In this document: positions 48,635 through 64,000 of the stretch, in pieces | Position numbering within the stretch: the stretch's first letter is position 1 | Layout of the letters: each line of letters begins with the position of its first letter | Assembly: GCA_963695545.1 (NCBI GenBank) | Contig: OY968796.1 | Span: forward strand, 2,368,001 to 2,432,000 | Length of the DNA stretch: 64,000 nt | Reading direction: 5' to 3' | Source of the DNA: Terriglobia bacterium | GTDB taxonomy: Bacteria; Acidobacteriota; Terriglobia; Acidiferrales; UBA7541 | Made by a program: the position numbers and the translations under genes | Notes under the pieces: generated by a model | The model's database searches: none | Told to the model about the DNA's origin: nothing | Seen by the model: only the letters and a program-made list of their open reading frames with translations

Positions 48635-49609
48635 TCACATTACAACGACAATCCGCCCGAGCCGCACCGGCCGTTCCACAAGCTCGTGCGCGCGAGCGAT
48701 ATCCGCCAGCGGAACTCGTTCGCCAATCTCGAAGCCTGCCCACCCCGTCTCAAGCGCAGCACTTAAATCCCGCGCCGCTTGCAATTTCGCTTCCTTTGGG
48801 AAATCGTCGCTCCCCAGAAAAAACACACGAATGTTCTTAAACACCATTTGCCAGAAGGGAATCTTCGGAGCGGCGTTGTCCGTGGCGTAGCTCGCGACCG
48901 AACCGCCCTGATTCAGGAGTTCGACGTCCACTTCGATGTTGGCTCCAAACGCCACTTCGACGATGTGGTCGATGCCGTCAGGAGCCACGGCTCTCACGCG
49001 CGAAGTCAGTTCCTTGTCGCTGACGAGCACCTCGTGGGCGCCGGCGTTCTTTGCCGCGGATTCGTCTGACGGCGACCTCACAATTCCGATCACTCGCGCG
49101 CCGGCGCGACGCGCGAGCTGAACGGCGCAAAAACCCACGGAACCTGCCGCTCCTTGCACCAACACGGTGCGTCCATTCACAGAACCCGCGACAGAAACGG
49201 CTCGGTGCGCAGTGATGCCGGGTATTCCGAGACAAGCGCCCTGCTCCATCGGCACGCTTTCCGGCAGGCGAGCAATCTGATCTAAGGGAACAACCGTGAA
49301 TTCCGCGGCCGTACCAAACGGACGATACGACTGTGCTCCGTAGCACCACACCGAGCGCCCCATCCACTCGGAGGGAACCCCGGCGCCGAGCTGATCCACG
49401 CGGCCAGCGCCATCACTATGCGGAATCACACGAGGATATGGCATGCCTACACCAAAGGCGTCCTGGCGCTTCTTGACGTCGCCCGGGTTGATGCCGGAGG
49501 CAGCCGTGCGAATGCGAACTTCGCCGCCCGCTGGAGTCGGATCCGGCATCTCGCCGACCATGAGCACTTCGCGAGCCGGCCCCTGCTTCTCGTACCATGC
49601 TGCCTTCAT
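48635..49609 (-). CDS. NADPH:quinone reductase (zeta-crystallin-like)
   Basis: GPAREVL, SGINPGDVK, IPHSDGAG, GACLGIP, GAAGSVG. Confidence 0.92.
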   Translation of the reverse strand: MKAAWYEKQGPAREVLMVGEMPDPTPAGGEVRIRTAASGINPGDVKKRQDAFGVGMPYPRVIPHSDGAGRVDQLGAGVPSEWMGRSVWCYGAQSYRPFGTAAEFTVVPLDQIARLPESVPMEQGACLGIPGITAHRAVSVAGSVNGRTVLVQGAAGSVGFCAVQLARRAGARVIGIVRSPSDESAAKNAGAHEVLVSDKELTSRVRAVAPDGIDHIVEVAFGANIEVDVELLNQGGSVASYATDNAAPKIPFWQMVFKNIRVFFLGSDDFPKEAKLQAARDLSAALETGWAGFEIGERVPLADIARAHELVERPVRLGRIVVVM

Positions 49610-49627
49610 TTACCTTCCTTAGATTTT

Positions 49628-50068
49628 CTATGCGTACAAGTCCAGCGGACCCGCGGTCATGGTCGTTTGTCCGACTTCAATGAGGTACCCGTCCGGGTCG
49701 CGCATGTAGCATCGCAATTCCGTTGCGTGGACTTTGGGCTCGGTGATGAATTTCGCGCCCCGCGAAGACCAAAGTTCGTAGTAGCGCGCGATGTCCGTTA
49801 CGCGAAGGTTCAGAAAGATGCTGAGAACGTTTGGATCGCGCGGCGGCGAAGCGACGACGTCGGGCTTGTCGTCGGTCGGGCCGCCACCGCCGTTGATCGT
49901 GAGCCAAATATTGCCGAGCCTCAAAAACGTCGGCTGCCCCTCGCGGAGCACCGTCGCGCCGAGGACGTCGCGATAGAACGCCACTGAGCGCTGAATGTCC
50001 CTAACGATGAGGGTATTCGTCGCCACAAACTTGAGTTCATTCGGCTGATCCGATTGGGGCATCGACAT
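49628..50068 (-). CDS. VOC/glyoxalase family protein
   Basis: LIVRDIQRSVAFYRDVLG...RDPDGYLIEV. Confidence 0.9.
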   Translation of the reverse strand: MSMPQSDQPNELKFVATNTLIVRDIQRSVAFYRDVLGATVLREGQPTFLRLGNIWLTINGGGGPTDDKPDVVASPPRDPNVLSIFLNLRVTDIARYYELWSSRGAKFITEPKVHATELRCYMRDPDGYLIEVGQTTMTAGPLDLYA

Positions 50069-50155
50069 GCCACCTCCCTTTGTGAGTCACTTTCCAAGGT
50101 TCGCTCCAGAGCGTAACTTCGAGCCCTCGAGCAGGGTTAGGCGCCGCGATGCCGT

Positions 50156-50407
50156 TTAAGGCAGGTACCCGTCCGCCATCCATTTAGCGAATAGCTCAAT
50201 GCGAGATTGAGGCCAAGGACCTTCTCCTCTTGGTGGCGGGGGCGGCATTACGGAGCCCCCGATTGCCCGAATGCGGTCGTAAATCGCGGCTGCGTGGGCC
50301 TTCACGTCGTCATAACTCGCCAGGTTAAACGCCTTGCTCATGCCCTGAATGTCCCGGTCCGTAAAAAGCGGGCGAATGTCTGCTTGAAAACTCGTTGGTT
50401 TGGTCAT
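50156..50407 (-). CDS. Small hypothetical protein (cytochrome-c-like layout without CxxCH)
   Basis: SFQADIRPLF...MPP...WP...F.KWMADG; GAGGGG RBS. Confidence 0.75.
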   Translation of the reverse strand: MTKPTSFQADIRPLFTDRDIQGMSKAFNLASYDDVKAHAAAIYDRIRAIGGSVMPPPPPRGEGPWPQSRIELFAKWMADGYLP

Positions 50408-50826
50408 TGCCCCCTCACAAGCTTTGGATTATAAACACGTCTCGCTCACACCTCGTGAATCGAAATCGTCCTGTCTCTTGATGTCAAAACATAGGATATT
50501 TCTTTTCCGGCCAAAGTTGTACGTCCGCGGTGCAACATACTTAACACGCATCACGCTTTGCATGAAAGCGTTTGGCCGGAGCGGGGCCGATGTTCGGCAA
50601 TCGAACCCCCGATATCGATGCGGCCGGTGGACCGGCGCCGATCTCGATCTGCGCAACGCCGTACTTAGTCGTGATTGAGCACAACCGGACGGATCGATTC
50701 TCTCGGGGGGAGGTGTTGCCGAATCAACTGATTAGATGGAGTTGCGTCGACCGGTTGACCTCGCACGACTTATCAGTAGTTGGGCCGGTAGGCCGCCGGT
50801 CTTGGATTTCGCCAACGCGCAGCAGG

Positions 50827-51543
50827 TTAGATTCGCGCCGCGACTTCCGTGCCAGCCGCTGCGAAAACCGAATTCACTTCCGACTCCGCAATCTCCACCA
50901 GGCAACGAACGACGTCGGGGTCAAACTGCGTTCCGCTCGACGCGAGCAGCCTGCGGATTCCTTCCTCAAAGGGAAGGCCTTGCCGGTAGGGCCGTGAGGA
51001 GACCATGGCGTCAAACGCGTCGATCACCGAGACGATGCGCGAGCCGATCGGTATCTCGCTCTTGGCCAGGCCCGCGGGGTAACCCGTTCCGTCAAAATTT
51101 TCGTGGTGATGCAACGTGAACAGGCTGGCCGTCTCGAATCCGGGAAGCATCCGCAGAATCGCCCAACTATATTCTGGATGTTTCTTGACGATCGCGTATT
51201 CTTCCTCGGTCAACCGCGACGGCTTGTTCAGAATCGCGTCGGGCACGCCGACCTTACCGACGTCGTGAAGCAGCGCGGCCACTTCCATGTCCGGCAGATC
51301 CTTTTGGTCGAAGCCCATGTCCTGAGCGACGCGCATGGCCCATTCCGCCAAGCGGGTGCTGTGCACTCCGGTGTTCAGATCCTTCAGATCAAGCAGCTGA
51401 TTGAAGGCGCACACAACCGAAGACCGCAGTTCGGAGACTTGATCTTCCAATCTCTTGATCCGCAACGTCCCCGGCGCCCACGATGGGACGATCGCGGGCG
51501 CGGGAGCCGGGGCGAAATCACGGGATAAGGCCATGGGGCTCAT
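50827..51543 (-). CDS. Stand-alone HD-GYP domain phosphodiesterase
   Basis: HSTR, LLHDVGK, HHENFDGTGYP, DAFDAM...RPY; start overlaps the S8 stop (ATGA). Confidence 0.92.
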   Translation of the reverse strand: MSPMALSRDFAPAPAPAIVPSWAPGTLRIKRLEDQVSELRSSVVCAFNQLLDLKDLNTGVHSTRLAEWAMRVAQDMGFDQKDLPDMEVAALLHDVGKVGVPDAILNKPSRLTEEEYAIVKKHPEYSWAILRMLPGFETASLFTLHHHENFDGTGYPAGLAKSEIPIGSRIVSVIDAFDAMVSSRPYRQGLPFEEGIRRLLASSGTQFDPDVVRCLVEIAESEVNSVFAAAGTEVAARI

Positions 51544-52877
51544 CTGCCTTCTGAGGCCTCAAGCCACGCTTGTATGGCGGTGAAAATGTCCAAGCGTCCA
51601 TTGTTCAGGTTTGGCGTCAGCCGCACGCCGTGGGAAATAGCGGATGCCGCCTGTGATTGATTTACGGGAGCGCGCGCGTCGATCAGAAGCGCCGCCGAGC
51701 CGGTCACGAGCGGGCAGCTAAACGACGTACCGGACCCGCTGGCATACGTGCCGCCGGGATACGTGCTGACGATGTTTTCTCCCGGTGCGCCGATCCAGAC
51801 GTCGGGCGTGCCGTAGTTCGAGAAAGTTGAGATCGTGTCGGAGTCAGAGGTCGATGCGATGCCCATCACGGAATTCGTAAGCGCCGCCGGGTAGGCTGCG
51901 GCGTTTGTGGTGCTATTGCCGGCCGCGGCCACCAGCACGACGCCCGATTGCGTGGCATAGGAGACTGCCGAAGACAGCGCTTGAGAAGGAGTCGTGAAGT
52001 CGAAGCTCATGTTCACGGCGTTGGCGTTGTTCTGCACCGCGTAGTACAGCGCCGCGACGATGTTGGAAAGGTAGCCTTCGCCGTTCGCCGAGAACGCCTT
52101 GAGCGGCAGAATCTTGGCCGTTGGCGCGACCAGGTGAATCAATCCGGCTGTCATGGTGCCGTGGCCGAAATCAGAGTAGGGGCCTCCGTCGAGTACGGCG
52201 ACGGTCCGCTGATCCAGCACGGCGACGGTTCGCTGTTGCACAACGGCGGGCTGCTCCTGCTGTGAGCCGCTATCGCTGCTGGTGTCTTGCAGCGCAGGAA
52301 CATCGAGCCATTCGGATGCGCCGGGTTGGTTTCGCGTGAAATCGTATCCGGGCAGCAGCACGCGGTAAAGCGCCGGATGGTATGGATCGACGCCGGTGTC
52401 AATGTCCGCGACAATTACGCCGGTCCCGGAGACGTTGAATGCTTGTTGCGAATTCTGCAGCTGAATGATTTCCGTCGCGGGCTGATCCACGTAGCCTTCG
52501 GTAACCGTGCTTCCATAATAGTTGACCGGAACCGAATCGTAGAGACCCGAGGTATTGGTCGGCACCGGACCGACCGGCAATGGCAAGAGCTGATCAACCT
52601 CGACGCTCGTGATTCCCAGTAGGCGTTCCAACAGATTGAGCACGCCGCCGACGAGGTTGGCCAATAGATTTTTATTCGAGGTCACCAGAAATGTTTTGCC
52701 GATCGCGCCGTCGAGCGAACCCTGCACCTGACACCCGGCGGAAAGACAGAGGTTTAGGACTGAATCAAGGCCCTTCGTCGTCTGCACGATATACCGCTGT
52801 TGGGCCGACGCCGGTATTGCTCCGAGCAAAGAAAAAAAGACGACCAATATGATTAAGCGGCGCTTCAGTGTGGACAT
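51540..52877 (-). CDS. Secreted S8 (subtilisin-like) serine peptidase
   Basis: Signal peptide MSTLKRRLIIL...ASA; catalytic DIDTG, GHGT, GTSFS and oxyanion AAAGN. Confidence 0.93.
   Translation of the reverse strand: MSTLKRRLIILVVFFSLLGAIPASAQQRYIVQTTKGLDSVLNLCLSAGCQVQGSLDGAIGKTFLVTSNKNLLANLVGGVLNLLERLLGITSVEVDQLLPLPVGPVPTNTSGLYDSVPVNYYGSTVTEGYVDQPATEIIQLQNSQQAFNVSGTGVIVADIDTGVDPYHPALYRVLLPGYDFTRNQPGASEWLDVPALQDTSSDSGSQQEQPAVVQQRTVAVLDQRTVAVLDGGPYSDFGHGTMTAGLIHLVAPTAKILPLKAFSANGEGYLSNIVAALYYAVQNNANAVNMSFDFTTPSQALSSAVSYATQSGVVLVAAAGNSTTNAAAYPAALTNSVMGIASTSDSDTISTFSNYGTPDVWIGAPGENIVSTYPGGTYASGSGTSFSCPLVTGSAALLIDARAPVNQSQAASAISHGVRLTPNLNNGRLDIFTAIQAWLEASEGR
52188..52235 (-). repeat. In-frame 24-bp tandem duplication encoding QRTVAVLD x2
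   Basis: CAG CGA ACC GTC GCC GTG CTG GAT / CAG CGG ACC GTC GCC GTA CTC GAC. Confidence 0.95.
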
Positions 52878-53024
52878 CACCGTTTCTCTTTTCTCCCTCA
52901 GTGGCCGACTGCCGGTCTCTTGCCGAGAGCCACCGAGCGAAGTGACAGTTTCGCGTACCCTCGCTCGGGCCAACAATGGTACAAGGCTCCCATCTGCGGA
53001 TGTTGCGGTTCTAGTACCTTTTTC

Positions 53025-53663
53025 CTACCGTTTCGTTGTTGCTCCATCCAGTGGCACCAGTATCCTGGTGTCCTCACCCACGTGGACGGAGAGGAGTATT
53101 CCTGCCTTAAATTCAAGTTCTAGCTGGAATTCGCCGAATCCGTTGGTCTCCACCTCGTGTCTCGACTCGTGTTGATCCTTGTCGTGTCCGGAAACTACAA
53201 ATACGCGGGCGCCTGCTACCGCCTTGGCGTGCTTGGATGAATCGAGCACCTGGCCGGCCACCCAGACGCGGCTCGAGCCCGGTATCGCCTCGATTCTGAA
53301 ATCAACAAATATCCGCCCCGAACGATAAAGGATCACTCGCGGCGAGTGGCTCGCTGAACGGAAGCCCATCGCGGTGGACCCGGCGAAACTGTCTAGAACG
53401 AGCTCCGCCATCACGGTGAGCGGCGAGCGAATCGTCGGCAATCCGCCGAGCGCGCCGACTCCTTTCACCGTACGCACTAGATCCTCCGGAGCCTGATGCT
53501 CCGCGGCTTGCGACGCCGTACGTGCCGTGCGAGTCCAGAAATCCAGTGTGACCCTGCATTCCTTACAACCTGACGCGAGGTGTCGTTCCGCAGCTTCCCG
53601 CTCTTCCTGACTGCTGCTTCCGCGCACATAGTCGATCCATTGCTCAGCCGCAAAATGCTTCAC
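53025..53663 (-). CDS. Putative soluble zinc-binding (zf-HC2-like) anti-sigma factor with C-terminal beta-sandwich domain
   Basis: HLASGCKEC (HxxxxCxxC); no evident TM helix; C-terminal GQVL...TNGFGEF carboxypeptidase-regulatory-like pattern. Confidence 0.7.
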   Translation of the reverse strand: MKHFAAEQWIDYVRGSSSQEEREAAERHLASGCKECRVTLDFWTRTARTASQAAEHQAPEDLVRTVKGVGALGGLPTIRSPLTVMAELVLDSFAGSTAMGFRSASHSPRVILYRSGRIFVDFRIEAIPGSSRVWVAGQVLDSSKHAKAVAGARVFVVSGHDKDQHESRHEVETNGFGEFQLELEFKAGILLSVHVGEDTRILVPLDGATTKR

Positions 53664-53784
53664 AGTTCTCGTCCTCCGCCCGGGGGGCCTAAATGAAGTG
53701 GGGCTGACGCTGCTGCCCCTACGCTAATAAGGGCGAGCAAGCGCCCGAAAAATATAGGCCGCTCAGAAATAGTAAGGCTTTTGT

Positions 53785-56649
53785 TTACAGTATCTTACCG
53801 ACAAGAATAAACGGGGCCCAAAAGCACGGGTGGGGATGATGCTCGCGAAGCTCGATCATGGCGTACTGTAAGGCCACGGGCTTGCTCTCGCCCGCGCGCA
53901 AACGTCCGTAGAAACTTTTCATGAAATCGGCCGCAGTTTGATCGTGAATATCCCACAGTGTCAGAAGCAGGGTCTGCGCGCCTGCGCAGAGCAGCCCGCG
54001 AACAAGGCCGAGCAATTCATCACCGGCGGCAACAGCGTTCAATCCCGTCGCGCAGCCACTGAGTGCCACGAGTTCCGCAGGAAGATGCAGTTGATAAAGG
54101 TCGTAGAGATTCAGTCGCGAGTCGCCTAGGCGAATCCCGGAAAACAGCGGACTGTCGTGGCGAAATTCGCCGTGTGTGGCGATGTGAATGTAGCGGCTGG
54201 AAAGTCCGCGCTCCTTCAGCACGGCCAGCGTCGCGGCCTGGCCGACAAAACATTCGACCGAAGGGAGCACGCCTGAAACTGCGCGGACTTCGTCGAGAAT
54301 CGCCGGGGCATTTTCATCGGGAACGCCGAGAACCAGGGATTTTGTCGCTGCGCATTGCGGCTTTCGTTGAGAGAGCGCAAATAAGCTCGCGCTCGGTGCG
54401 TACGATAACGTGAACGAATCCATCAGGTACGCTGTTCCGTCGTGCAGAGCGTGAAATGGAATGTAATGTAGCGGCCCGTGAGGAACGATGATCACGTGAG
54501 AGCCCTGTAGCTTGTCGCGGATCGGCGCGATCAGTTCGTCATGAAGCCGCCGCAGGTGCGAAAGCGTCGCTTCAAGAAGCGAACTCTCAAAACGATCGGC
54601 ATATTCCTTGCCCAACCGGAATTTTGAGATCTGAAACTGCAACATGCGCAGCAAGTGCACCACTCGCGCGCCGAGGGAGACGCCGACGATCTCGATCGCA
54701 TCTCCGTGCAGCATGCACGCGACGATTTGGTCGCCGATCATGAAGTATTCGAGCAGCGTAGCGTCCGGCGGCAAGGAAGCTCGAATTGTTTCCAACGTGA
54801 CGCCCTCGCCTGATTCGAGCGTGTTCTCCTCGCTGGCCTGCATCTCGCGAATCGCCGATAGAAATTCCTCTTCGCGCGATTTCGATTGTTCTTGAAGCTT
54901 CGCAATTCGATCCGGTGAGCTTTCTTCCGGACGCAGCTGCTCGATATCGATCCGGTGGTAATACCAATTCAATTCTTCGCGAAGTTCGCGAATTCTGCGC
55001 ACCAGATCGCTTTGCCCCGTGTTATTCCCGGCCAGAATCGGTCCGCGCTGCAGCATAAGATCGGTGAGGCTGCGCGACTTTGCCTCTTCGATGCAGGCGA
55101 AGGCTTCCTCGAATCGCAGAGGGTCGGAAGAACGTTCGAGGCAGATTTCCACCAGACCTTCGTACACTCCGAGTTTGTTCTTGAGAAAAGCGATCTTTAC
55201 TTCTTCTCCTCGCAGACCGCTGCGAAGCTTTTCGAGTGCGGCGCGCGCGTGCTGAAACGATTCGTAGGCCGCCTCGTTGTTTCCACCCGCGCGATGGATT
55301 TCTCCCATCAGCGACCAGGCCTGGAACGCAAGTGGCGCGGCATCGAGCGGCTGCAGCCGTTCGAGCGCGGATCGGCACTCGCCACCCGCGGCGCGCCAAT
55401 CTCCGCTCCGGAGCGAAATCCGGGCCAGTAGCAGATCACAAAGCACGGCCTTGCCGATCAAAGCCGATGTCGAGAAAAATGAAAGAGCCTTTTGGCAGAG
55501 CCGGCGCGCTTCAAATAACCGCCCTTGTTCGCAGAGCAGCAGAGCCTGGTACAAGTCGAGCAGCCAGGGCCATACTAGATTTTTCTCGGCCACAAACTCC
55601 TTTCGCGCCGCGGTGAACAGCTCGATCGCTCGAAAGGCCTGTCCTTGCTGCCCCAGCGCGATGGCTTCGTTCGCGAGGCATTTGGCCGCCTCGTAGCCGG
55701 TGCCAACCTCCAGAAATAGCCGATGCGCGTCGTGCGCCGTCTCGACGGCCTCGCTGCTGAGGTTCAATTCCAAGTAAATTTCCGATAGATCCATGTGGCA
55801 GAGCGCAAGCTGATAGGTGTCGCCGTTCTTGCGGCACGCTTCCCGCGCAAACAGCAGACCCTGGATCGCCCGGCTGTATTCGCCGCGCAGGTAATAGAGA
55901 TAGGCGATGTTGTAATCGGCCATAGCCGTGAGCAGCGGCATGCCGCGCTTTTCGCAGAATTCACGCGCGTTTTGATATGTTTCGAGCGCGCGCGGAAAAT
56001 CATTCAGCGCAATCAGGCAAACCGCCAGATTGCTCAACACCGCAGCGATGGCTTCGTGATCGTCCCCGTTGCGCAGAAATTCGTAGGCGCGTTCGTAGCA
56101 CGCCAGGCCTTCTTCTAGACGATCCTGGCGGTGAAAAATGTTCCCGACGTTTATTTCGAGGCGCGCAATGCGCCGCGCATCGCCCAGTGCCGTAAAAATA
56201 GATCGCGCGCGATCCGCTGCGGCCAAGGCTCGTTCGTATTCTCCGAGCAAAATCATCGGTTGCAGGGAGCCGCTCAGACTGATTCCGATCTCGCGTTGGT
56301 TTCCCGCCTTTTCGTAGCTTTGCAGCGCCTGCTCGTGCAGTTCGATGGCCTCGTGATTTTTCCCAAGCGTGAACACGGCGTTGGCCTTCGCGCGCAGGCT
56401 TCGTCCGAGTGATTCCGGATTGTCAAGTTCGCGGGCGATCATCACGGCCGCATCGGCCAGCACCAGCGCAAGGTCCGCATCGATGCGCACCTGCGCGTGC
56501 ACGGCTTCCGCGAGTTGCTCGACGACCTCCGCATTTAGCAACTGTTGATGGCTCGCGAGGAATTGTTTGCGCGCCGCCTCGCTCGGAAGCTCGCTTAATT
56601 CCCGCAGGAAAGTTTGGAGAGGAGCCGAAATGTCGTTGATCGCGATCAC
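53785..56649 (-). CDS. TPR-CHAT (caspase/HetF-like) protease
   Basis: Long TPR array, coiled segment, then CHAT domain with IVPHGPLHYIPFHAL, HIATHG (His) and LSGCATG (Cys), ending WAPFILVG. Confidence 0.93.
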   Translation of the reverse strand: MIAINDISAPLQTFLRELSELPSEAARKQFLASHQQLLNAEVVEQLAEAVHAQVRIDADLALVLADAAVMIARELDNPESLGRSLRAKANAVFTLGKNHEAIELHEQALQSYEKAGNQREIGISLSGSLQPMILLGEYERALAAADRARSIFTALGDARRIARLEINVGNIFHRQDRLEEGLACYERAYEFLRNGDDHEAIAAVLSNLAVCLIALNDFPRALETYQNAREFCEKRGMPLLTAMADYNIAYLYYLRGEYSRAIQGLLFAREACRKNGDTYQLALCHMDLSEIYLELNLSSEAVETAHDAHRLFLEVGTGYEAAKCLANEAIALGQQGQAFRAIELFTAARKEFVAEKNLVWPWLLDLYQALLLCEQGRLFEARRLCQKALSFFSTSALIGKAVLCDLLLARISLRSGDWRAAGGECRSALERLQPLDAAPLAFQAWSLMGEIHRAGGNNEAAYESFQHARAALEKLRSGLRGEEVKIAFLKNKLGVYEGLVEICLERSSDPLRFEEAFACIEEAKSRSLTDLMLQRGPILAGNNTGQSDLVRRIRELREELNWYYHRIDIEQLRPEESSPDRIAKLQEQSKSREEEFLSAIREMQASEENTLESGEGVTLETIRASLPPDATLLEYFMIGDQIVACMLHGDAIEIVGVSLGARVVHLLRMLQFQISKFRLGKEYADRFESSLLEATLSHLRRLHDELIAPIRDKLQGSHVIIVPHGPLHYIPFHALHDGTAYLMDSFTLSYAPSASLFALSQRKPQCAATKSLVLGVPDENAPAILDEVRAVSGVLPSVECFVGQAATLAVLKERGLSSRYIHIATHGEFRHDSPLFSGIRLGDSRLNLYDLYQLHLPAELVALSGCATGLNAVAAGDELLGLVRGLLCAGAQTLLLTLWDIHDQTAADFMKSFYGRLRAGESKPVALQYAMIELREHHPHPCFWAPFILVGKIL

Positions 56650-57242
56650 GCGTGTCCCTGTGATTCAAGTTCCTTTCGCAACCGCTTCAGGCAGCGCCCG
56701 CGTATGAATCCGATCGATCCAGTGGCAATTCCCAGGCGCGCCGCGACTTCCGCGTACGGAAGGGCCGGCTCGTGAAAGAAAAGCATCTCCACCAGGCGCG
56801 CGCACCGAGGAGGCAGACCGGCCACGGCGTCGCGAAGAATTTGTTCCTGCTCTGCTTCCCGCAGAATCTGTTCGGAATCAAGCGCCGGGTTTCCGCGCGC
56901 CGGCGGCTCTTCGCCCTCCACTAGGTGAATTGAGCGCGATTCCAGGCGCTTCCATTGAATGCATTTGTGCGCGGACACCTGCATCAGCCACTTGGGAAGA
57001 GCTTTTGGCTCGCGGAGCGACCCGAGTTCTGAAAGTAGTTCCACGCAAACCGATTGGAAAATATCCGCCGCCGCATCCGGCCCCAATTGAAATTTGATCG
57101 GGATGGAATAGATCAAATTCTTATACTTGTCGACGAGGGCTTCCCAGGCTTCCTGGTTTCCATCGAGACATTCTCGCACCAGCCGTGTATCCGTCCATGG
57201 CGCGGTGGAGGGCAGTGCAACGTCGGTGAGAGGTGCGGTCAT
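56646..57242 (-). CDS. ECF RNA polymerase sigma factor
   Basis: D..LVRECLDGNQEAWEALV region 2; LPPRC...Y.EVAARLGIATGSIGFIRGRCL region 4; ATG 57242 overlaps the SBP stop. Confidence 0.92.
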   Translation of the reverse strand: MTAPLTDVALPSTAPWTDTRLVRECLDGNQEAWEALVDKYKNLIYSIPIKFQLGPDAAADIFQSVCVELLSELGSLREPKALPKWLMQVSAHKCIQWKRLESRSIHLVEGEEPPARGNPALDSEQILREAEQEQILRDAVAGLPPRCARLVEMLFFHEPALPYAEVAARLGIATGSIGFIRGRCLKRLRKELESQGHA

Positions 57243-59047
57243 CGTGCCCCGCCGGCGGTGTCCTTGCGAACGAACAATTCTTCCGCGTTCCAATCCGCAT
57301 AAGGCGCAAGAATCGCGGGCTCGAAATTCCCAACGCTGTTTTTCGCCGCCAGCAATATGTTCGGACTCACCAGGAAGACAACGGGGACGTTTTGAGCGAC
57401 CAACTCCTGCACCTGATCGTAAATCTTCTTGCGCTCCGCGTACTGCGGCGAAACTTCCTGCTTGCGCATCAGTTCGTCCACTTCTGCTTCCCACGGCGTG
57501 GCCGGTTTGGTCTCCCCGAGATGCCACACGTGCGTACTGCCGTCCGACGTCCACACGTTCATTTCCGCGGTCGGGTCCGTGTCGCCGGTTCCGAGCGAGA
57601 GCAGGCACGCCTCGTAATTGAAAGTATTGAACACGCGATCCACCATGGACCGAAACTCCATCGAAACGACGTCGACATGCATCCCGAGCTGCGAAAGATC
57701 GTGCTGAATCATCGTGGCCATCTGCAGCCGTTGTGCGTTCGAGGAACTGGTGAGGATCGAGAATTCCACGGGCTGGCCGGTGCCGTCCTGAAGCGTTCCA
57801 TCGCTCTTCCAGGAAAATCCCGCTGCGGCCAGAAGTTGCCGCGCCTGTTCGAGGGATCGCGCAGGACGCGGCAGGTTTTGATCCATCCATCTCTTGTTTC
57901 CCGGCGTCACGTTGCCCCAGATCGGCGTGGCGCGCCTCTCGAAAACAAGCCGCACCATTGCGTCGCGGTCCACCGCGAGGGAAACGGCCTGCCGGAAGCG
58001 CACATCGCTGAACCAAATTTTCTTCCGAGCGATATCCGCAGGCTGATCGGAGGAAGGATCGTTCAAATTGAAAAATAGAAAGTTGTATTCGAGGCCGGGC
58101 CCAAGATCGTAAATCCTGTATCCGCCCGCATCCTTTTTTCCGTCCAGCAGACCGTAATTTTGCGCGCTGAATCGACTGAGCACATCGGTTTCGCCCGATT
58201 GGAATCGCAATACCTCCGCGTCCTCGCTGGCCACAAACAGATATGCGATCTCGTCGAGATACGGCAGGCGCTTGCCCTGGCCGTCTGTCTTCCAGTAGTA
58301 GGGATTGCGTTCCAACACAACACGTTGCCCCGGCACGTACTCCTTCAGTCGAAATGGGCCGAGCCCTGCAATTTGATTCGGAGCCACTGTCGTGCCCCAC
58401 GCGTCGCCCAACTTCCCCGCCAGGTACGCGCTCTCCAGCAGATGTTTCGGCAGGATCGCCACGCTATCGAACAGCCGTTCGGCCGCCGCATACGGCTCCG
58501 CCATCGAAAACTCCACTTGATCTTCCGCGAGCTTTCGCACCGCGATCGGTTTGTCGCCAACGATCAGCAGATCGCGCTGCGGAGAATCCACCTTCTCATC
58601 CAGATACACTTGAAAACTGAACACCACGTCATCCGCGGTAAATGGATATCCGTCGGAGAATTTCACGCCATGACGAAGTTGCAGCACGTATCGCCGGCCG
58701 TCCGGCGATACCTTCCACGATGTCGCCAGCGCAGGTTCTGTGCCTTGGGATAACCGGTTGATGTGGATCAGGTCCGCCATCATCAATCCCAGGATTTCTT
58801 TCGAAGACCCATCCACCGCGAGAACCGGATTGAATGTTTTCGGCTCGGACCGCAACGCAAAAACCAAGCGCCCTCCGAACGTGCCTTCCGGAGCCGTTGA
58901 GCGAACCAATTCTTCGGACGTTGCGGAGTCCTGCGGGGTCGGTGACGCGGCGCGCACACCCGCCAGTGCCAGCGCAGCTGCCACCAACAGGAACAGAGAT
59001 GTTCTCTTCCGGGTGGAAATGTTCTCCCTGCGCGGCGATTTATTCAC
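57239..59047 (-). CDS. Oligopeptide ABC transporter substrate-binding protein (family 5)
   Basis: EPKTFNP, PALATSW.VS.DG, FSDG.PFTADDVVFS, GLGPF, LERNPYYW; GTG start overlapping the permease stop. Confidence 0.92.
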   Translation of the reverse strand: MNKSPRRENISTRKRTSLFLLVAAALALAGVRAASPTPQDSATSEELVRSTAPEGTFGGRLVFALRSEPKTFNPVLAVDGSSKEILGLMMADLIHINRLSQGTEPALATSWKVSPDGRRYVLQLRHGVKFSDGYPFTADDVVFSFQVYLDEKVDSPQRDLLIVGDKPIAVRKLAEDQVEFSMAEPYAAAERLFDSVAILPKHLLESAYLAGKLGDAWGTTVAPNQIAGLGPFRLKEYVPGQRVVLERNPYYWKTDGQGKRLPYLDEIAYLFVASEDAEVLRFQSGETDVLSRFSAQNYGLLDGKKDAGGYRIYDLGPGLEYNFLFFNLNDPSSDQPADIARKKIWFSDVRFRQAVSLAVDRDAMVRLVFERRATPIWGNVTPGNKRWMDQNLPRPARSLEQARQLLAAAGFSWKSDGTLQDGTGQPVEFSILTSSSNAQRLQMATMIQHDLSQLGMHVDVVSMEFRSMVDRVFNTFNYEACLLSLGTGDTDPTAEMNVWTSDGSTHVWHLGETKPATPWEAEVDELMRKQEVSPQYAERKKIYDQVQELVAQNVPVVFLVSPNILLAAKNSVGNFEPAILAPYADWNAEELFVRKDTAGGAR

Positions 59048-60075
59048 GACACAACTCCACCGGCACGAGCCGCCAACACGCTCGACACGCTGTTGTATGC
59101 GAGAAATACCGGCACCAGCACGAGAGCCGGCAAATACATCCACCATTCCGTCTGCAGCACGCGCACCTGCTGCAGGCTTGCCAGCAGATTGCCCAAACTC
59201 GGAGCGGGCTCGCCCACGCCCAGCCCGAGGAACGAGAGAAACAGTTCGGCAAGAATGAACTGAGGAACCAACAACGCTGCTTGCGTCCAGATCACCGGCA
59301 TGGCTTGCGGCAAAACGTGTCGCCGGAGCAGATATGCGTCCGACGCTCCGAATCCGCGCGCCGCGCTCACAAAGTCGCGTTCCTTCGCCGCCAGCGTGAT
59401 TCCGCGCACCAGTCGCGCCGGCCGCGCCCATCCCACAATTCCGATAACCGTGATGATCAACAGGAAAGCCTGCGCCGGACTCACGTGCAGCGGCAGCGTC
59501 GCGCGTACGGCAAACAGCAAAAATAGCCACGGCACGGCCATAAATAATTCTGTCCAGCGCATGAGCAAGGAATCCACCAATCCGCCCGCGTAGCCTGCGA
59601 GTCCGCCGATCACTAAGCCGAGCAAGAGTGAAACCCCCGCAGCCAGTAGTCCTGCATATAGCGAGAGCTGCGCTCCGAACACCATCCGCGAGAAAAGATC
59701 TCTTCCGAACTCGTCTGTGCCGGCAAGGAAAATGTGCGCGGGCGCGCTCGCCCCGAACAAATGGCGATCCGCGGAAAATATTCCCAACACACGATACTCA
59801 GGTCCGCGTACAAACAATCGGATCGGATAGGTGGCGGTTTTCACTTCCTCATATTCGTCCGGATTCGTCGGCGATTCTTCGGCGGCGTAAACGAATGGCC
59901 ACGCATGCAGCTTGCCGCGCCCATCGACCAGATGAATCCGCGTCGGCGCGCTGGCGGCGAAATCACGGTCTTGCTCGGCCGGATCGTACGGCGCAAAAAA
60001 TCCGGGCACGAGCAACGCGGCATGAACTGCCGCGAGAAAGATTAGAGATGCCACGAAGATACGATTGCTCCGCAC
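59044..60075 (-). CDS. Oligopeptide ABC permease (OppC/DppC-like)
   Basis: GTDEFGRDLFSR, WARPARLVRG, FVSAARGFGAS, LSFLGLG. Confidence 0.93.
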   Translation of the reverse strand: MRSNRIFVASLIFLAAVHAALLVPGFFAPYDPAEQDRDFAASAPTRIHLVDGRGKLHAWPFVYAAEESPTNPDEYEEVKTATYPIRLFVRGPEYRVLGIFSADRHLFGASAPAHIFLAGTDEFGRDLFSRMVFGAQLSLYAGLLAAGVSLLLGLVIGGLAGYAGGLVDSLLMRWTELFMAVPWLFLLFAVRATLPLHVSPAQAFLLIITVIGIVGWARPARLVRGITLAAKERDFVSAARGFGASDAYLLRRHVLPQAMPVIWTQAALLVPQFILAELFLSFLGLGVGEPAPSLGNLLASLQQVRVLQTEWWMYLPALVLVPVFLAYNSVSSVLAARAGGVVS

Positions 60076-60076
60076 G

Positions 60077-61039
60077 CTACTCCGTCCGAATCCGCGGATC
60101 GCTCCAGCAAAGAAGCGCATCCGCAACGAGGTTTCCGGCCACGAGCAGCACCGACGAAAACATGATTCCGCCGACCACGACGTTGAGGTCCCGCGAAAAC
60201 GCCGCTTCAAGCAAGAGCGGCCCCAGACCCGGCCAGCTCAGAATCACTTCCACCAGCATGGAGGCGCTCAGCAGTGACGCCAGCGAAAATCCGAACAGCG
60301 TCAGCAACGGGTTCGCAGCCGCCGGCAATGCGTGGCGGAACAACAGCCGCCGGCGCGAAATCCCATGAGCCTTTGCGGCGCGGAAGTACGGCGCGTGGAG
60401 CACTTCGACGATCGCCGCGCGAACGTGGCGGAACAGCACGGGCAACATGATGATCACCAGCGCGATCGTTGGAATGAGCAGGTGCACCGCGAGGTCCTGA
60501 AACTTTTTAATGGGACTTAGATCCGCAAAGTCGAGAGAAACCATTCCCCCGGTCGGCAACAAGCCTGTTCGCGCGGCAAATAAAAGCAGCGCCAGTGCCA
60601 GCAAAATATCCGGCACAACGAGCATTCCCGAGGAACACAAGCTGAGCAAATGGTCTGTCCACTTTCCTTCATGTGTCGCGGCCCAGATTCCCAACGCCAA
60701 TGCCAAAAACCAACTGACCAGCGTGGCCGTTACCGTGAGCAACAAAGTGTTTCGCACTCGCACCAGCAACAGCGGCGCGACGGGTGCGTTGTATGCGAAC
60801 GATTTCCCCATATCGCCATGCGCCACGCCCGCCAGCCACTCCGCGTACCGCGCAGGCAACGATCGATTCAATCCGTATTGCGACCGCAGCGCGGCCACGG
60901 TCTCCGCGCGAACCTCGGGCTGCAGTTGCATTTCGGAAAAGAAATCCCCGGGCGCGAGCTGCATCAATGCGAAGGAGATGAACGACACACCGAGCAGCAG
61001 AAAAACGCCGTGAAGGAGGCGCCGAGTGAGATATCGCAT
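60077..61039 (-). CDS. Oligopeptide ABC permease (OppB/DppB-like)
   Basis: LAPGD, GDMGKS, AKAHG, VE.I.SWPGLG, DPRIR. Confidence 0.93.
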   Translation of the reverse strand: MRYLTRRLLHGVFLLLGVSFISFALMQLAPGDFFSEMQLQPEVRAETVAALRSQYGLNRSLPARYAEWLAGVAHGDMGKSFAYNAPVAPLLLVRVRNTLLLTVTATLVSWFLALALGIWAATHEGKWTDHLLSLCSSGMLVVPDILLALALLLFAARTGLLPTGGMVSLDFADLSPIKKFQDLAVHLLIPTIALVIIMLPVLFRHVRAAIVEVLHAPYFRAAKAHGISRRRLLFRHALPAAANPLLTLFGFSLASLLSASMLVEVILSWPGLGPLLLEAAFSRDLNVVVGGIMFSSVLLVAGNLVADALLCWSDPRIRTE

Positions 61040-62788
61040 CTACTCGACCTCCTTCGCGGTCAGCGCGCCGGTCAAGTTCGCTTGCGCTTCATCCTCGTGC
61101 TCGCCGACTTCCGCAAAGTTCCTGTCGAGGAGTGAATCGCCGCGGCTGGATCTCGCCACAATTTGACCGTCGCGCAGTACGGCGATTTCGTCTGCGACTC
61201 GCGCCGCCAGTTCAAGATCGTGTGTGATGAATAGATATGTAAGGCCACGGTTAGCCCGCAATTCGCGGAGCAGGTCGCTCAGCTGCGCCTGCAAGAGCCG
61301 ATCAAGGCCGGAAAATGCTTCATCGAAGATCATGAACTCCGGCTCGAGGATGAGCGCACGTGCGATCGCCAGCCGCTGTCGCTGCCCGCCGCTAAATTCC
61401 GCGGGCAGGCGATCTCCTTGCGAGCGACTCAGTCCAACTTGCTCCATCATCGCGAGCGCCCGCTCCCGCCGCTCCTCTTGCGTGCCGGCACTTTCGATCG
61501 TCAGTGGTTCGGAAACGGCTTGCCACGCGCGCATCCCCGGATTTATCGAGGAGACGGGATCTTGAAAAATCAGCTGGATGCGCCGACGGTGCCGACGAAG
61601 CGCAGCGTTTGGCATGCGAGTGAGATTTTCCCCAGCGAGCCATATCTCGCCGGCGTCGGGCCTGGTCAGCATCGCCAAGCAGCGGGCCAGAGTTGACTTC
61701 CCGGATCCCGATGGGCCCACGAGCCCCACAGCGCCGCCGCGCGCGACGCGTAGACTTAAATCGCGCAGCGCCGGCACGACCACGCGCTTTCGCGAAAACA
61801 GCTGACGCCGCGAATATAGCTTGTGAACGTTGCGCGCTTCGATCAAGGATTGCTCATCGATCGAACCGGCCGCGGAAAAACTTCCTGGCGCAAGATCCAC
61901 GCTGCGAGTGGAGCGGAAGTTGGAAAGCACACCACTTGCCGGATCGTCTCCGCGCCACAATCCCGACGCGAGCAATTCGCGCGTGTATGCGTGCATCGCC
62001 CACTTCGGAAGCTGTTGCCATTCGCCCTCTTCGACGATTCGCCCGTCGTGCATGACCAGAACTCTGCTCGCCAATCGCGCCAGGACTCGCGGATCATGGC
62101 TGATCAAGAGCAGCGCCATGCGAAAGCGATCTCGCAGTTGTGCAAGCAAATCGAGAATCTCCGCCTGCACGGCCCAATCGAGCGACGCTGTCGGTTCGTC
62201 CGCGACGACGATCGCGGGCTGGCATGCGAGAGCCTGCGCGATCAACACGCGTTGTCTTTGTCCTCCGCTCAATTGATGCGGATAGGCGTCAAAAAATCGC
62301 TCGTTTCCCGAAAGGCGCACCGCTTCCAATAACGATTGCGCCTGCTCGACGCATTTCTTTCCGCTCCATGATCGCTTGTGCGCACGGATCACTTCCGCCA
62401 CCTGTGTGCCAATACGCATCACGGGGTTGAGCGCCAGGTTCGGTTCCTGGAAGATCATCGAGATCTCGGCGCCGCGAATCTCGTCCATCTCTCGCTCGCT
62501 TAAGCCGATGAGTTCGCGATCTCGAATGCGAATGGATCCGCTCACGCGGCTCTTAACGGGAAGCACTTGGAGCAGGGCTAAAGCGATGGTCGTTTTCCCG
62601 CATCCCGACGCGCCCATCAGGCCGAGGCATTCCCCAGAGTTCACTTCGAAATTGATCTGGTCTATCGCGGTGTGGGGTGTGGCGCCTGCTGGCGAATAGG
62701 AGACGCTCAAATCACGAACGCGCAGCAGCGATCCCGCTGCGTGCGAGGCATCGGTCACGGCGACACGGTTGTGGCTTCCCAAGCCCAT
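61040..62788 (-). CDS. Fused double-domain oligopeptide ABC ATPase (OppD+OppF-like)
   Basis: Two Walker A motifs (GASGCGKT, GPSGSGKS) and two signatures (LSGGQRQR, FSGGQRQR). Start uncertain (62758-62809). Confidence 0.92.
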   Translation of the reverse strand: MGLGSHNRVAVTDASHAAGSLLRVRDLSVSYSPAGATPHTAIDQINFEVNSGECLGLMGASGCGKTTIALALLQVLPVKSRVSGSIRIRDRELIGLSEREMDEIRGAEISMIFQEPNLALNPVMRIGTQVAEVIRAHKRSWSGKKCVEQAQSLLEAVRLSGNERFFDAYPHQLSGGQRQRVLIAQALACQPAIVVADEPTASLDWAVQAEILDLLAQLRDRFRMALLLISHDPRVLARLASRVLVMHDGRIVEEGEWQQLPKWAMHAYTRELLASGLWRGDDPASGVLSNFRSTRSVDLAPGSFSAAGSIDEQSLIEARNVHKLYSRRQLFSRKRVVVPALRDLSLRVARGGAVGLVGPSGSGKSTLARCLAMLTRPDAGEIWLAGENLTRMPNAALRRHRRRIQLIFQDPVSSINPGMRAWQAVSEPLTIESAGTQEERRERALAMMEQVGLSRSQGDRLPAEFSGGQRQRLAIARALILEPEFMIFDEAFSGLDRLLQAQLSDLLRELRANRGLTYLFITHDLELAARVADEIAVLRDGQIVARSSRGDSLLDRNFAEVGEHEDEAQANLTGALTAKEVE

Positions 62789-63004
62789 TTGCACAAGCCG
62801 GCGTTGCACGAACGCAAATGCCGCGCCTAGTCATTGTTAAGGCTAAAAATTCCCTCCTTCCAAGTCCATAGAACGACTGTCTGAGTGCTAATGTCTTAAC
62901 TTTATACATAACCTTATTATTAGCACCATGGTGCATAGAGCCCTCTCGCGTGCGTCGCGGTCCGGCCGCGCTTGATCTGCATCGCAGAGAAGGCAAAGGA
63001 AGTT

Positions 63005-63718
63005 CTAGTTAGGGCCGTGACGCTGTGGGGATGCCACCGTTGCCTTTAACCCCTCCCGAGCGGCAGGCCGCGGGCCATCGGGAATTCGCCAAGCGGTGAC
63101 CACATAGCGACGCGGGGCGGAGCCGATGAAGTGAAATGGATAGCACGTGACGAGCGTGAGCGACTGCCGGCCTTGCGGGCGCAGGACCTCGATGTCGGTC
63201 GGGTCGACGATGGCGGTGGTCGCTACGCGATAGTGATATGTACCCCTCGGCGTTTCCACGCCGATTTCATCGCCCGGTCGCAGCGCTCCGAGGTTGCGAA
63301 AAAAAGTGTCGCGATGCCCGGCGAGCCCCATCGCGCCGGAGCCGTCCGGGAAGGAAGTTCCAGGAATGTGGCCGACGGCGCGACGCAACGTTGTTTCGTC
63401 ATCGCCTTCCAGAACTATTGCAGAGAGGCCGATCTCGGGGATCGTCAACTTGCCGAGTAACTCGTCCGGTTGCACCGCTTGCACCGCCGCGGCTCCGCGG
63501 CGTAACGCAGCGAGGCGACGCGCTTGCACGGCCTGAAAAATTAGCCTGTCTGCCGAGACGAAAAGGAACCAGCCGAGCCCCGCCACCGCGGCGACCCAGC
63601 ATAAATACTCGAGCCAGCGCAAAAAGTTATCCTGCCAGACGGAGGCATGCATCGGCGGAGCCGCGGCGATATCGCGGTCGGCCGATGCAAGCACGTGCAT
63701 GGAATCTCGCGTGGCCAT
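63005..63718 (-). CDS. Class D-like sortase
   Basis: N-terminal TM; GHIPGT, AGHRDTFF, LTLVTCYPF, PRRY (His/Cys/Arg triad). Confidence 0.92.
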   Translation of the reverse strand: MATRDSMHVLASADRDIAAAPPMHASVWQDNFLRWLEYLCWVAAVAGLGWFLFVSADRLIFQAVQARRLAALRRGAAAVQAVQPDELLGKLTIPEIGLSAIVLEGDDETTLRRAVGHIPGTSFPDGSGAMGLAGHRDTFFRNLGALRPGDEIGVETPRGTYHYRVATTAIVDPTDIEVLRPQGRQSLTLVTCYPFHFIGSAPRRYVVTAWRIPDGPRPAAREGLKATVASPQRHGPN

Positions 63719-63781
63719 GGCTTGAAGAGTGTCGCCGGGCGCCCCCAACAGCGCCGCCCGGCGACTCTCGGCGCGTCGTAC

Positions 63782-64000
63782 TTAAGCGCGCGCTCTGCGC
63801 CGAAGCACGAGTCCGACTGCCACGCACAGCAGTCCCGACAACCCAATTAACGGGAGCGAGCTGGCTGTTTGAGGCAATTGCGCCGAATTCGTGGTGGAGG
63901 TTGTAGGGTTGTCCGCAGGCGCCGGCGTTGCGGTGCTGTTGGCGTTGGTTTGCCCTGCGGATGTGTCTGGCGTCGTAGCGGGAGTCGAGCCAGTTTGAGG
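63782..64000 (-). CDS. C-terminus of a sortase substrate (LPQTA + TM + basic tail); partial
   Basis: Manual translation: PQTGSTPATTPDTS...NSAQ-LPQTA-SSLPLIGLSGLLCVAVGLVL-RRRARA*. Not in the ORF track. Confidence 0.88.
   Translation of the reverse strand, partial: PQTGSTPATTPDTSAGQTNANSTATPAPADNPTTSTTNSAQLPQTASSLPLIGLSGLLCVAVGLVLRRRARA

Follow-up and report, generated by a model that had tools for sequence, protein, structure and literature searches.

A conserved Acidobacteriota gene cassette linking a peptide importer, an ECF sigma factor, a TPR-CHAT protease and a peptide-repeat subtilase: a candidate peptide signalling circuit

Nine co-oriented genes at the locus

We analysed a 64,000-nucleotide stretch of DNA from a Terriglobia bacterium (GenBank assembly GCA_963695545.1, contig OY968796.1, positions 2,368,001 to 2,432,000), referred to as the window, and all positions are numbered from its first letter. 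The subject is a cassette of nine genes, all on the minus strand within 50827..62809, encoding an oligopeptide permease (Opp)-type importer, a sigma factor of the extracytoplasmic function (ECF) type, a protease with tetratricopeptide repeats (TPR) and a CHAT domain, an anti-sigma-like protein, a secreted S8 subtilase and an HD-GYP protein. Judged by comparison with related sequences, the cassette is a unit; its core consists of the sigma factor, the zinc-type anti-sigma-like protein, the TPR-CHAT protein and the secreted S8, and one segment of the TPR array is matched to a tandem peptide repeat in the S8. A preliminary description of this DNA had reported nine co-oriented genes, and the open reading frame (ORF) coordinates, our reading of the sequence and the Pfam and NCBIfam assignments bear this out:

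61040..62809, minus strand: ATP-binding cassette (ABC) ATPase in which two nucleotide-binding domains are fused, of the Opp/Dpp D+F type (Pfam ABC_tran twice, E 1.4e-63)
60077..61039, minus strand: OppB-type permease, permease 1 (BPD_transp_1, E 9.5e-35, and BPD_transp_1_N)
59044..60120, minus strand: OppC-type permease, permease 2 (BPD_transp_1, E 9.8e-23, and OppC_N)
57239..59047, minus strand: family-5 substrate-binding protein (SBP) with a signal-like hydrophobic N-terminus (SBP_bac_5, E 3.9e-84)
56646..57242, minus strand: ECF-type sigma factor (Pfam Sigma70_r2 and r4; NCBIfam TIGR02937 ECF, E 1.6e-21)
53785..56649, minus strand: cytoplasmic TPR-CHAT protease, 954 residues (CHAT, E 7.5e-60, and TPR_12)
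53025..53663, minus strand: soluble zinc-type anti-sigma-like protein, 212 residues (no Pfam family; assigned from motif and model)
51540..52877, minus strand: secreted S8 subtilase, 445 residues from the ATG at 52877 (Peptidase_S8, E 6.7e-34)
50827..51543, minus strand: stand-alone HD-GYP phosphodiesterase, 238 residues (HD_5/HD-GYP, E 3.8e-40)

From the ATPase gene to CHAT, and between the S8 and HD-GYP genes, the junctions are as reported before, abutting or overlapping by 4 nt, with one that depends on the choice of start. The ATPase gene, whose start is likely the ATG at 62788, abuts permease 1, and overlaps of 4 nt join the SBP to the sigma factor, the sigma factor to CHAT, and the S8 to the HD-GYP gene. 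Two starts are possible for permease 2: an ATG at 60120, giving a 44-nt overlap with permease 1, and a GTG at 60075, giving a 1-nt gap. Gaps of 121 nt and ~147 nt follow the CHAT gene and the anti-sigma-like gene, respectively. Searching positions 49500-64000 against Rfam (E up to 0.1) returned no match.

The NCBIfam matches of the ATPase are of the YejF, GsiA, OppD and OppF types, every one of them under its cut-off. The stand-alone protein is, by its sequence motifs, a member of the HD-GYP phosphodiesterase family, as the LHDxGK (HD), HHE and GYP motifs are kept in all 66 orthologues; its predicted substrate is c-di-GMP or another cyclic dinucleotide.

Conservation of the cassette as a unit

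Relatives of the CHAT protein were scanned for in one genome per species, and the best 80 of the 243 loci found, whose CHAT proteins are 53–60% identical, were analysed (denoted by L numbers below). Almost all come from Acidobacteriota metagenome-assembled genomes of the Acidiferrales/Acidoferrum group, with a few bins carrying other phylum labels. A locus was taken to have room for the whole cassette where at least 6.4 kb upstream and at least 3.4 kb downstream were available, which left 56 loci. All eight neighbours of CHAT stand in the same order and place in 51 of these 56. The five exceptions lack the S8 gene (L012), the Opp and HD-GYP genes (L024), the SBP gene (L039) or the permease and ATPase genes (L065), or carry an insertion (L018).

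Counted gene by gene, over the related loci with room for each, the sigma factor gene is present in 64 of 64, the ATPase (often split into two genes) and the SBP in 62 of 64, the OppB-type and OppC-type permeases each in 61 of 64, and the HD-GYP gene in 63 of 65. The gene-neighbourhood comparison called for in the preliminary description places Opp genes upstream of sigma-CHAT in 61–62 of 64 loci; a lack of conserved Opp genes beside sigma/CHAT, which that description had named as a refutation, is thus not what the loci show. The ORFs that flank the cassette are mostly singletons or members of small clusters. Because the order is kept in 51 of 56 loci from species-level genomes while the flanks vary, we regard the cassette as a unit; the nine genes stand together far more consistently than chance would allow.

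A class D sortase gene (63005-63748, minus strand; NCBIfam SrtD, 146 bits, cut-off 140) lies immediately upstream of the cassette in the window and was not detected at any of the 80 related loci.

A tandem octapeptide in the S8 subtilase

The S8 subtilase comprises a signal peptide, a propeptide-like region and a catalytic domain, and the Asp, His and Ser motifs are present in all 73 cassette S8 proteins. A hydrophobic, signal-like N-terminus is found in the window S8 and in all 13 distant S8 proteins that were inspected, with a propeptide-like segment next in those 13. Within its catalytic domain the window S8 contains a short repeat:

52188..52235, minus strand: tandem octapeptide QRTVAVLD-QRTVAVLD, S8 residues 215–230, in the loop between the catalytic Asp and His

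The two copies are the same in protein and differ at 4 of 24 bases in DNA, and a genome-wide search found QRTVAVLD encoded nowhere else in the window's genome. A tandem octapeptide is present in the Asp-His loop of all cassette S8 proteins, in twelve variants that include QSSAAILD, QSTAAVLD, QHTAAMLD and rarer forms. The copies are protein-identical in 68 of 75 S8 proteins, the other seven differing at one residue, and the two DNA units differ at 1–10 of 24 bases, always synonymously. One serine, for example, is written AGC in copy 1 but TCN in the second copy across many species. Because the DNA differences are synonymous, the copies appear to be old and held identical by selection, and recent duplication or gene conversion was ruled out as the source of their identity on the same ground. 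A difference between species at residue 6 is shared by both copies (S8 columns 220 and 228, 0 errors). These alignments indicate that the repeat is under selection for identical copies.

Two loci have three octapeptide copies. The S8 of L100 (L100:10075-11976) has 17 copies of QSTGAILD, one in the Asp-His loop and 16 between the propeptide and the catalytic domain; the 16 are arranged in four blocks divided by three copies of a 16-residue spacer (core RKQFGSARG[VI]HRN), and two of them are one residue off. Six loci encode two S8 paralogues each, 47–52% identical to each other and with the same peptide, and four distant S8 proteins carry other tandem 6–8-mers at the propeptide junction. We propose the octapeptide as the signalling peptide, which would then be encoded in the S8 gene itself, and treat it as the candidate in what follows.

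A TPR segment that switches with the octapeptide

In the TPR-CHAT protein, TPR helices span residues 8–527 and the CHAT domain residues ~700–952 (predicted local distance difference test score, pLDDT, of the model 84.6). Foldseek returned separase, Csx29 and DdvA as fold neighbours of the CHAT model. The catalytic residues of both proteases had been described as intact in the window; beyond the S8 motifs already given, His826 (54172-54174) and Cys866 (54052-54054) of CHAT are invariant in 40 aligned sequences. On the modelled fold and the His-Cys dyad, the protein is a clan CD CHAT protease. One segment of its TPR array co-varies with the S8 repeat:

56032..56181, minus strand: TPR segment, residues 157–206, switching with the S8 octapeptide (column co-variation)

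We asked which alignment columns partition with residue 6 of the peptide, which is Ile in 25 loci and Val or Met in 43. The test covered 3,672 columns in ten alignments of the nine proteins, the ATPase being treated as two halves. A first set of 2,807 columns comprised the permeases (320 and 342), the SBP (574), the sigma factor (191), CHAT (950), the anti-sigma-like protein (204) and HD-GYP (226), and a second set of 865 columns comprised the S8 and the two ATPase halves. In the first set only seven columns partition with one error at most, and all of them are in CHAT, between residues 163 and 201: columns 163, 166, 190 and 200 have no error and columns 193, 198 and 201 have one, while the best column outside CHAT has 4 errors. 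In the second set only the peptide's own S8 columns, 220 and 228, follow the partition, and the next best column has 5 errors. The seven CHAT columns fall in the model helices 158–174, 178–192 and 198–214.

On a tree of the permeases, the sigma factor and HD-GYP, the Ile/non-Ile state changed six times. The Val-type loci L016, L019 and L030+L032 nest separately among Ile-type loci, and their TPR columns have Val-type residues (R163, I/L166, G200), whereas at the nearby clade-marker columns 210, 224 and 254 the Ile-clade state is retained. Because the TPR columns switch and the clade markers do not, a single block transfer of CHAT and S8 is unlikely. At the DNA level, sister loci with different peptides are 57–64% identical in codons 156–207 and 74–81% identical in codons 208–260; for L019 and L034 the values are 59% in codons 156–207 and 85–90% in codons 261–950. 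A same-peptide pair shows no such dip, with 80% identity in codons 156–207. The N-terminal TPR region is thus mosaic or fast-evolving, and matched to the peptide. We propose the segment 157–206 as a candidate peptide-specificity site.

The preliminary description had supposed that the S8 generates a peptide that the TPR array senses. The tandem octapeptide and the seven matched TPR columns lend substance to that link, but the source of the peptide has to be amended, as it probably lies within the S8 and is not cut from another protein.

The co-variation also bears on generic protein foraging, in which the S8 would digest environmental protein, the Opp importer would take up mixed peptides and the sigma module would sense the general peptide supply. 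A secreted protease beside a peptide importer is a common nutritional pairing, and the substrate class of the SBP cannot be assigned from its NCBIfam matches, which are all under cut-off (the top match, Opp4A at 9e-42, far under it). Foraging nevertheless leaves unexplained why the octapeptide copies are protein-identical and DNA-divergent, why the peptide changes in parallel between species and why exactly one TPR segment switches with it, and we judge it decidedly unlikely.

The 212-residue protein as a putative anti-sigma factor

Zinc anti-sigma (ZAS) factors carry the motif H/C-x(23-26)-H-x3-C-x2-C in an N-terminal helical domain. In an alignment of 34 sequences of the 212-residue protein, H3, H28, C33 and C36 are invariant and give H-x24-H-x4-C-x2-C; the spacing between the second His and the first Cys is x4 in most members, x3 in one and x5 in one. 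The model (pLDDT 76 overall, >90 for residues 1–50) has helices at residues 6–14, 19–30, 34–55 and 60–70, a low-confidence linker (~56–86) and a β-sandwich (87–204). It contains no membrane helix, in agreement with the earlier remark that no transmembrane segment is evident, though no dedicated transmembrane predictor was used.

Residues 2–66 align to Mycobacterium tuberculosis RslA bound to SigL (3hug_B; Z 6.5, r.m.s.d. 3.8, 61 aligned residues, 28% identity), a Z-score within the range of common arrangements in a structure search against representatives. The β-sandwich has generic macroglobulin/Ig-like matches (Z ~8). A Foldseek search with the whole model gave generic β-sandwich matches only, with ChrR at rank 47, and no PDB sequence fell below E 0.06 when searched with a profile. 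In Pfam there are sub-threshold matches alone, to CarboxypepD_reg in 7 of 34 members and to zf-HC2 in 2 of 34 at E 0.19 or worse, and the NCBIfam antisigma score is E 6e-4. The family is large: public data contain 4,014 representative clusters of it (E up to 1e-3). Motif and model together suggest that the 212-residue protein is a soluble anti-sigma factor, one that has gone unrecognised in the literature on the sigma factor group ECF54 (compared below). Two regions are candidates for cleavage: the linker, with near-invariant P58, R64 and K67, and a conserved low-confidence loop at residues 96–105, with invariant G100 and R102.

Alternatively, the proteases could act on the sigma factor itself, with CHAT and/or the subtilase degrading it to keep the system off, and the 212-residue protein would then not be an anti-sigma factor. 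The absence of any Pfam match above threshold suits this possibility, as does the description of ECF54 sigma factors as lacking a recognisable anti-sigma factor and being possibly controlled by proteolysis (PMC8999054, PMC7826278). It is hard to square with the invariant H/H/C/C motif, with the structural match of residues 2–66 to RslA, and with the position of the 212-residue homologue at +1 after the sigma factor in distant modules. The S8, moreover, has a signal peptide and therefore cannot meet a cytoplasmic sigma factor. Degradation of the sigma factor thus seems to us improbable, and we continue to read the 212-residue protein as a putative anti-sigma factor.

In the sigma factor, cysteines C25, C147 and C184 are invariant and C66 is nearly so in 40 sequences, which is unusual for an ECF sigma factor. 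These cysteines might confer metal or redox sensitivity.

A shared promoter-like motif

The gap between the CHAT gene and the anti-sigma-like gene contains a conserved bipartite motif:

53727..53759, minus strand: bipartite motif GCCTATATTT-N16-CCCTTAT, 63 nt upstream of the anti-sigma-like start

In the form CC(C/T)TATATTT-N16-CCCTTAT, the motif is found in all 73 CHAT-to-anti-sigma gaps, ~72–82 nt ahead of the start codon, a distance that is 63 nt in the window. All 73 gaps score at least 22 bits with a matrix trained on 65 of them, and 64 of the 65 regex-matched sites have a 16-nt spacer. The window site scores 33.4 bits, against 15.7 bits for the next best site in its own 4.16-Mb genome, and the exact match is unique in both the window and the genome. 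In at least 16 other loci the motif also precedes the importer operon, upstream of a small secreted-protein gene that heads an importer-sigma-CHAT operon. Its sharing by both transcription units is what an autoregulated ECF promoter would show, and we consider the motif a candidate output promoter. A sigma-54 reading of the intergenic motif was rejected, as the spacing is wrong and the region is not conserved. Scans with promoter and terminator consensus sequences gave no more matches than expected from shuffled sequence, and none of the intergenic gaps held a terminator-like site.

The small secreted protein, c12, has ~145–165 residues and is encoded in 20 loci (e.g. L006:2951-3448), where its gene immediately precedes that of the ATPase. 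The c12 proteins are 72–97% identical among loci, and CCTATATTT-N16-CCCTTAT precedes at least 16 of the 20 genes. As a peptide precursor c12 was ruled out, being absent from the window and containing no octapeptide.

Two further observations concern the non-coding DNA. A second conserved element lies upstream of the ATPase gene (62810-62900, minus strand), with the equivalent region in 64 loci; its consensus is approximately ATTACCTTT-N5-GCGC...ACGTTTGNCTTGTCC, the window retains only part of it, Rfam gives no match, and it could be a promoter or a leader. In L018 an insertion of ~8.6 kb (L018:12860-21250) splits CHAT from the anti-sigma gene, and the promoter motif has stayed with the anti-sigma gene.

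An older four-gene module

A profile built from the 34 sequences of the 212-residue protein was searched in 401 sampled Acidobacteriota genomes and matched 33 of them, with up to seven copies in one. For 18 of the more distant matches the surrounding DNA was examined. A sigma factor gene is adjacent in 17 of the 18 and a TPR-CHAT gene in 15; an S8 bearing a signal peptide lies within the examined DNA of 10, and two further loci end inside CHAT. The usual order in these distant loci, tightly spaced, is sigma factor, 212-residue homologue, CHAT and S8; in the lineage of the window it is sigma factor, CHAT, 212-residue gene and S8. An Opp-type SBP occurs in a single distant locus (L090:1103-2824; family-5 and divergent from the sigma gene), and an HD-GYP domain likewise in one only (L085:388-2883; inside an 831-residue HD-GYP-GAF-GGDEF protein). 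These two associations may be independent links to peptide binding and c-di-GMP, or chance.

Because the distant loci hold the sigma factor, 212-residue, CHAT and S8 genes nearly always without Opp or HD-GYP, the gene-order comparison identifies the core as a four-gene module of sigma factor, anti-sigma, TPR-CHAT and S8, older and present across Acidobacteriota, and the Opp and HD-GYP genes as additions in the clade of the window. The single nine-part system of the preliminary description accordingly holds as a unit within this clade, with Opp and HD-GYP dating from later than the four-gene core.

The additions might still be fortuitous neighbours kept by shared descent, with the four-gene core alone functional, and their absence from nearly all distant modules, together with a locus (L024) that keeps sigma-CHAT-anti-sigma-S8 without them, would fit. 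Yet the cassette is constant while its flanks vary, 4-nt overlaps tie the SBP to the sigma factor and the S8 to HD-GYP, and the same motif stands before the importer operon and the anti-sigma unit in at least 16 loci. We consider a fortuitous association very improbable.

The Acidobacteriota genome G291 has seven homologues of the anti-sigma-like protein (L084, L087, L088, L089, L092, L094 and L095), most of which adjoin their own sigma factor and TPR-CHAT genes. The arrangement suggests several parallel channels within one cell.

A proposed peptide signalling circuit

We propose that the nine genes make up a self-contained circuit for peptide signalling, of the quorum-sensing or ‘pherotype’ kind, built on the older four-gene module, and regard the proposal as evenly poised between true and false. 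The S8 would be exported and would free short peptides from its own tandem octapeptide copies, and the dedicated Opp-type importer would return the peptide to the cell. There it would bind the TPR array around residues 157–206 of the CHAT protein, a step to which the sequence co-variation points. Activated CHAT would then cut the anti-sigma, probably in the disordered linker or the loop 96–105, by analogy with Csx29/Csx30 and DdvA. The freed ECF sigma factor would transcribe from the unique CCTATATTT-N16-CCCTTAT promoter, which in the window would drive the anti-sigma gene and probably also the S8 and HD-GYP genes, and in many relatives the importer-sigma-CHAT operon too. The outcome would be feedback and a drop in c-di-GMP.

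Several observations weigh against this circuit. Most distant modules have no Opp genes nearby, and the distant anti-sigma homologues L088, L093 and L096 have no CHAT gene nearby. Six of the 13 distant S8 proteins inspected contain no tandem repeat, and in the clade of the window the repeat lies inside the catalytic domain, so that release of the peptide would nick the enzyme. No SBP column tracks the peptide, the best having 5 errors, which fits a promiscuous Opp importer, yet offers no positive evidence for import. The importer operon of the window lacks the promoter motif. Finally, the formal test of the co-variation has little power, with only 4 independent pairs on supported branches; the TPR columns agree in direction in all 4 (sign-test p 0.125), and control columns do so in ~1.3–1.5 of 4.

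The main rival draws on some of the same observations. In a secretion or folding checkpoint, TPR-CHAT would read the repeat on the cytoplasmic S8 precursor, for example when export is blocked, and adjust the sigma factor, with the Opp importer as a co-regulated nutritional partner. The placement of the repeat in the catalytic domain, the scarcity of Opp genes near distant modules and the SBP without co-variation would all suit it, and the TPR/peptide co-variation shows matched parts, not a free imported ligand. What a checkpoint does not readily accommodate is an Opp importer that is fixed in 61–62 of 64 loci and translationally coupled to sigma-CHAT, an S8 resembling a multi-copy pheromone precursor, with 16 spacer-separated copies at the propeptide junction, or two diverged S8 paralogues that retain the same peptide. 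We think the checkpoint unlikely, although less so than the other alternatives.

The signalling circuit in its fullest form would be an Acidobacteriota pheromone system with strain or species ‘pherotypes’, in which the tandem copies sit in the releasing subtilase, Opp imports and TPR-CHAT reads the peptide, the anti-sigma is destroyed, the ECF sigma factor is fired and c-di-GMP is lowered. We advance this tentatively, as somewhat short of an even chance.

The sigma/CHAT/subtilase neighbourhood has been catalogued with no known signal or mechanism, and the present results name a candidate ligand, a synthesisable octapeptide, together with a candidate binding site at TPR residues 157–206 and a candidate output promoter. 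If the circuit is real, it would be the first peptide quorum-sensing circuit of RRNPP logic outside Bacillota and would supply the first natural ligand for the large ECF54-type sigma/CHAT/subtilase modules. It would also place peptide quorum sensing through cytoplasmic TPR receptors in a major soil phylum, and would reveal both a new gating mode for a caspase-like protease and peptide/receptor pairs that form a natural, mutually orthogonal set.

Comparison with known systems

Phr peptides are described as being released by subtilisin-type proteases, entering the cell through Opp and acting on TPR receptors, and copies of the pheromone can lie in tandem within a propeptide (PMC11343458). In the proposed circuit this Phr/Rap-type logic would be joined to that of craspase and DdvA, in which a TPR-CHAT protease acts on the inhibitor of a sigma factor. 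The logic proposed here is that of the RRNPP systems of Bacillota (Rap/Phr, NprR, PlcR; PMC11343458, PMC3601992, PMC4147580), with a subtilisin-cut secreted propeptide, Opp import and a cytoplasmic TPR receptor, and tandem pheromone copies and a receptor and peptide that diversify together would be common to both. It differs in that the presumed pheromone lies inside the protease itself and not in a small Phr gene, that the receptor output is a CHAT protease in place of a phosphatase or helix-turn-helix domain, with an ECF sigma factor as the final output, and that the host has an envelope of the Gram-negative type. No RRNPP family is among the Pfam and NCBIfam matches of the CHAT protein; a direct comparison with RRNPP receptors was not made.

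Type III-E craspase (Csx29 TPR-CHAT, Csx30 and CASP-sigma; PMC10028731) has a ligand-gated TPR-CHAT protein and a partner whose cleavage frees an ECF-type sigma factor. Csx29 (PDB 8eey and others) is a fold neighbour of the CHAT model (Foldseek E 8.7e-16), and its NCBIfam match to the CHAT protein has E 8.9e-11, at 41 bits against a cut-off of 300. In our case the trigger would be a peptide and not a target RNA, and the presumed substrate is a zinc anti-sigma. Neither Cas7-11, Csx30/Csx31 nor a CRISPR array was found among the nine genes or the ORF clusters of the 80 loci. A defence-system reading was rejected, no defence genes having been found.

In DdvA/DdvS of Myxococcus xanthus (PMC11506125), an ECF sigma factor is held by a zinc-type anti-sigma linked to a TPR-CHAT that is proposed to cut it, and DdvA is a fold neighbour of the CHAT model (8rw5, E 5e-14). 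DdvA is described as one transmembrane protein with a periplasmic TPR-CHAT and a need for RseP (PMC11506125). Here, by contrast, the anti-sigma and TPR-CHAT parts belong to two different soluble proteins, accompanied by a secreted subtilase, an importer and a peptide repeat.

For the four-gene core the closest comparison is ECF54, whose genomic context is reportedly given in Huang et al. 2015, so that the sigma/CHAT/subtilase neighbourhood would have been catalogued since then. The ECF54 entry in the PMC7826278 supplement (Casas-Pastor et al. 2021) lists a carboxypeptidase-regulatory-like protein at +1, together with a subtilase and a TPR-CHAT protein, as encoded close to these sigma factors, and assigns the group 100% to Actinobacteria; it states that ECF54 “lacks a putative anti-sigma factor” and predicts the promoter GTATCAG (-35) / CTCC (-10). 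CHAT is mentioned in that supplement alone and not in the main text of PMC7826278. The ECF54 passage of PMC8999054 considers possible control by proteolysis from bioinformatics only, and reports no experiment. The distant Acidobacteriota loci show the same context of sigma factor, β-sandwich +1 protein, subtilase and TPR-CHAT. The preliminary description, which knew of no described CRISPR-independent system with its combination of genes, was therefore too strong, as the four-gene context is catalogued as ECF54 (PMC7826278, PMC8999054).

The likeness to ECF54 rests on gene context, for the window sigma factor matched only the general ECF model TIGR02937 and the CarboxypepD_reg matches are weak here (those 7 of 34 members, best E 0.0056). 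The hosts are Acidobacteriota, as against an Actinobacteria-only ECF54, and the motif CCTATATTT-N16-CCCTTAT differs from the predicted GTATCAG/CTCC. The +1 protein has a zinc anti-sigma-like N-terminal domain, whereas ECF54 is described without an anti-sigma factor, and an Opp importer and an HD-GYP gene are attached. The PMC7826278 supplement entry and the ECF54 passage of PMC8999054 make no mention of a peptide repeat in the subtilase. Literature searches on the CHAT/ECF context, RRNPP with CHAT, CHAT in quorum sensing and Acidobacteria peptide pheromones returned no paper describing the circuit. The core of the cassette is already catalogued, and the Opp- and HD-GYP-linked form, with its co-evolving peptide/TPR pair, is a new variant that joins two known signalling logics.

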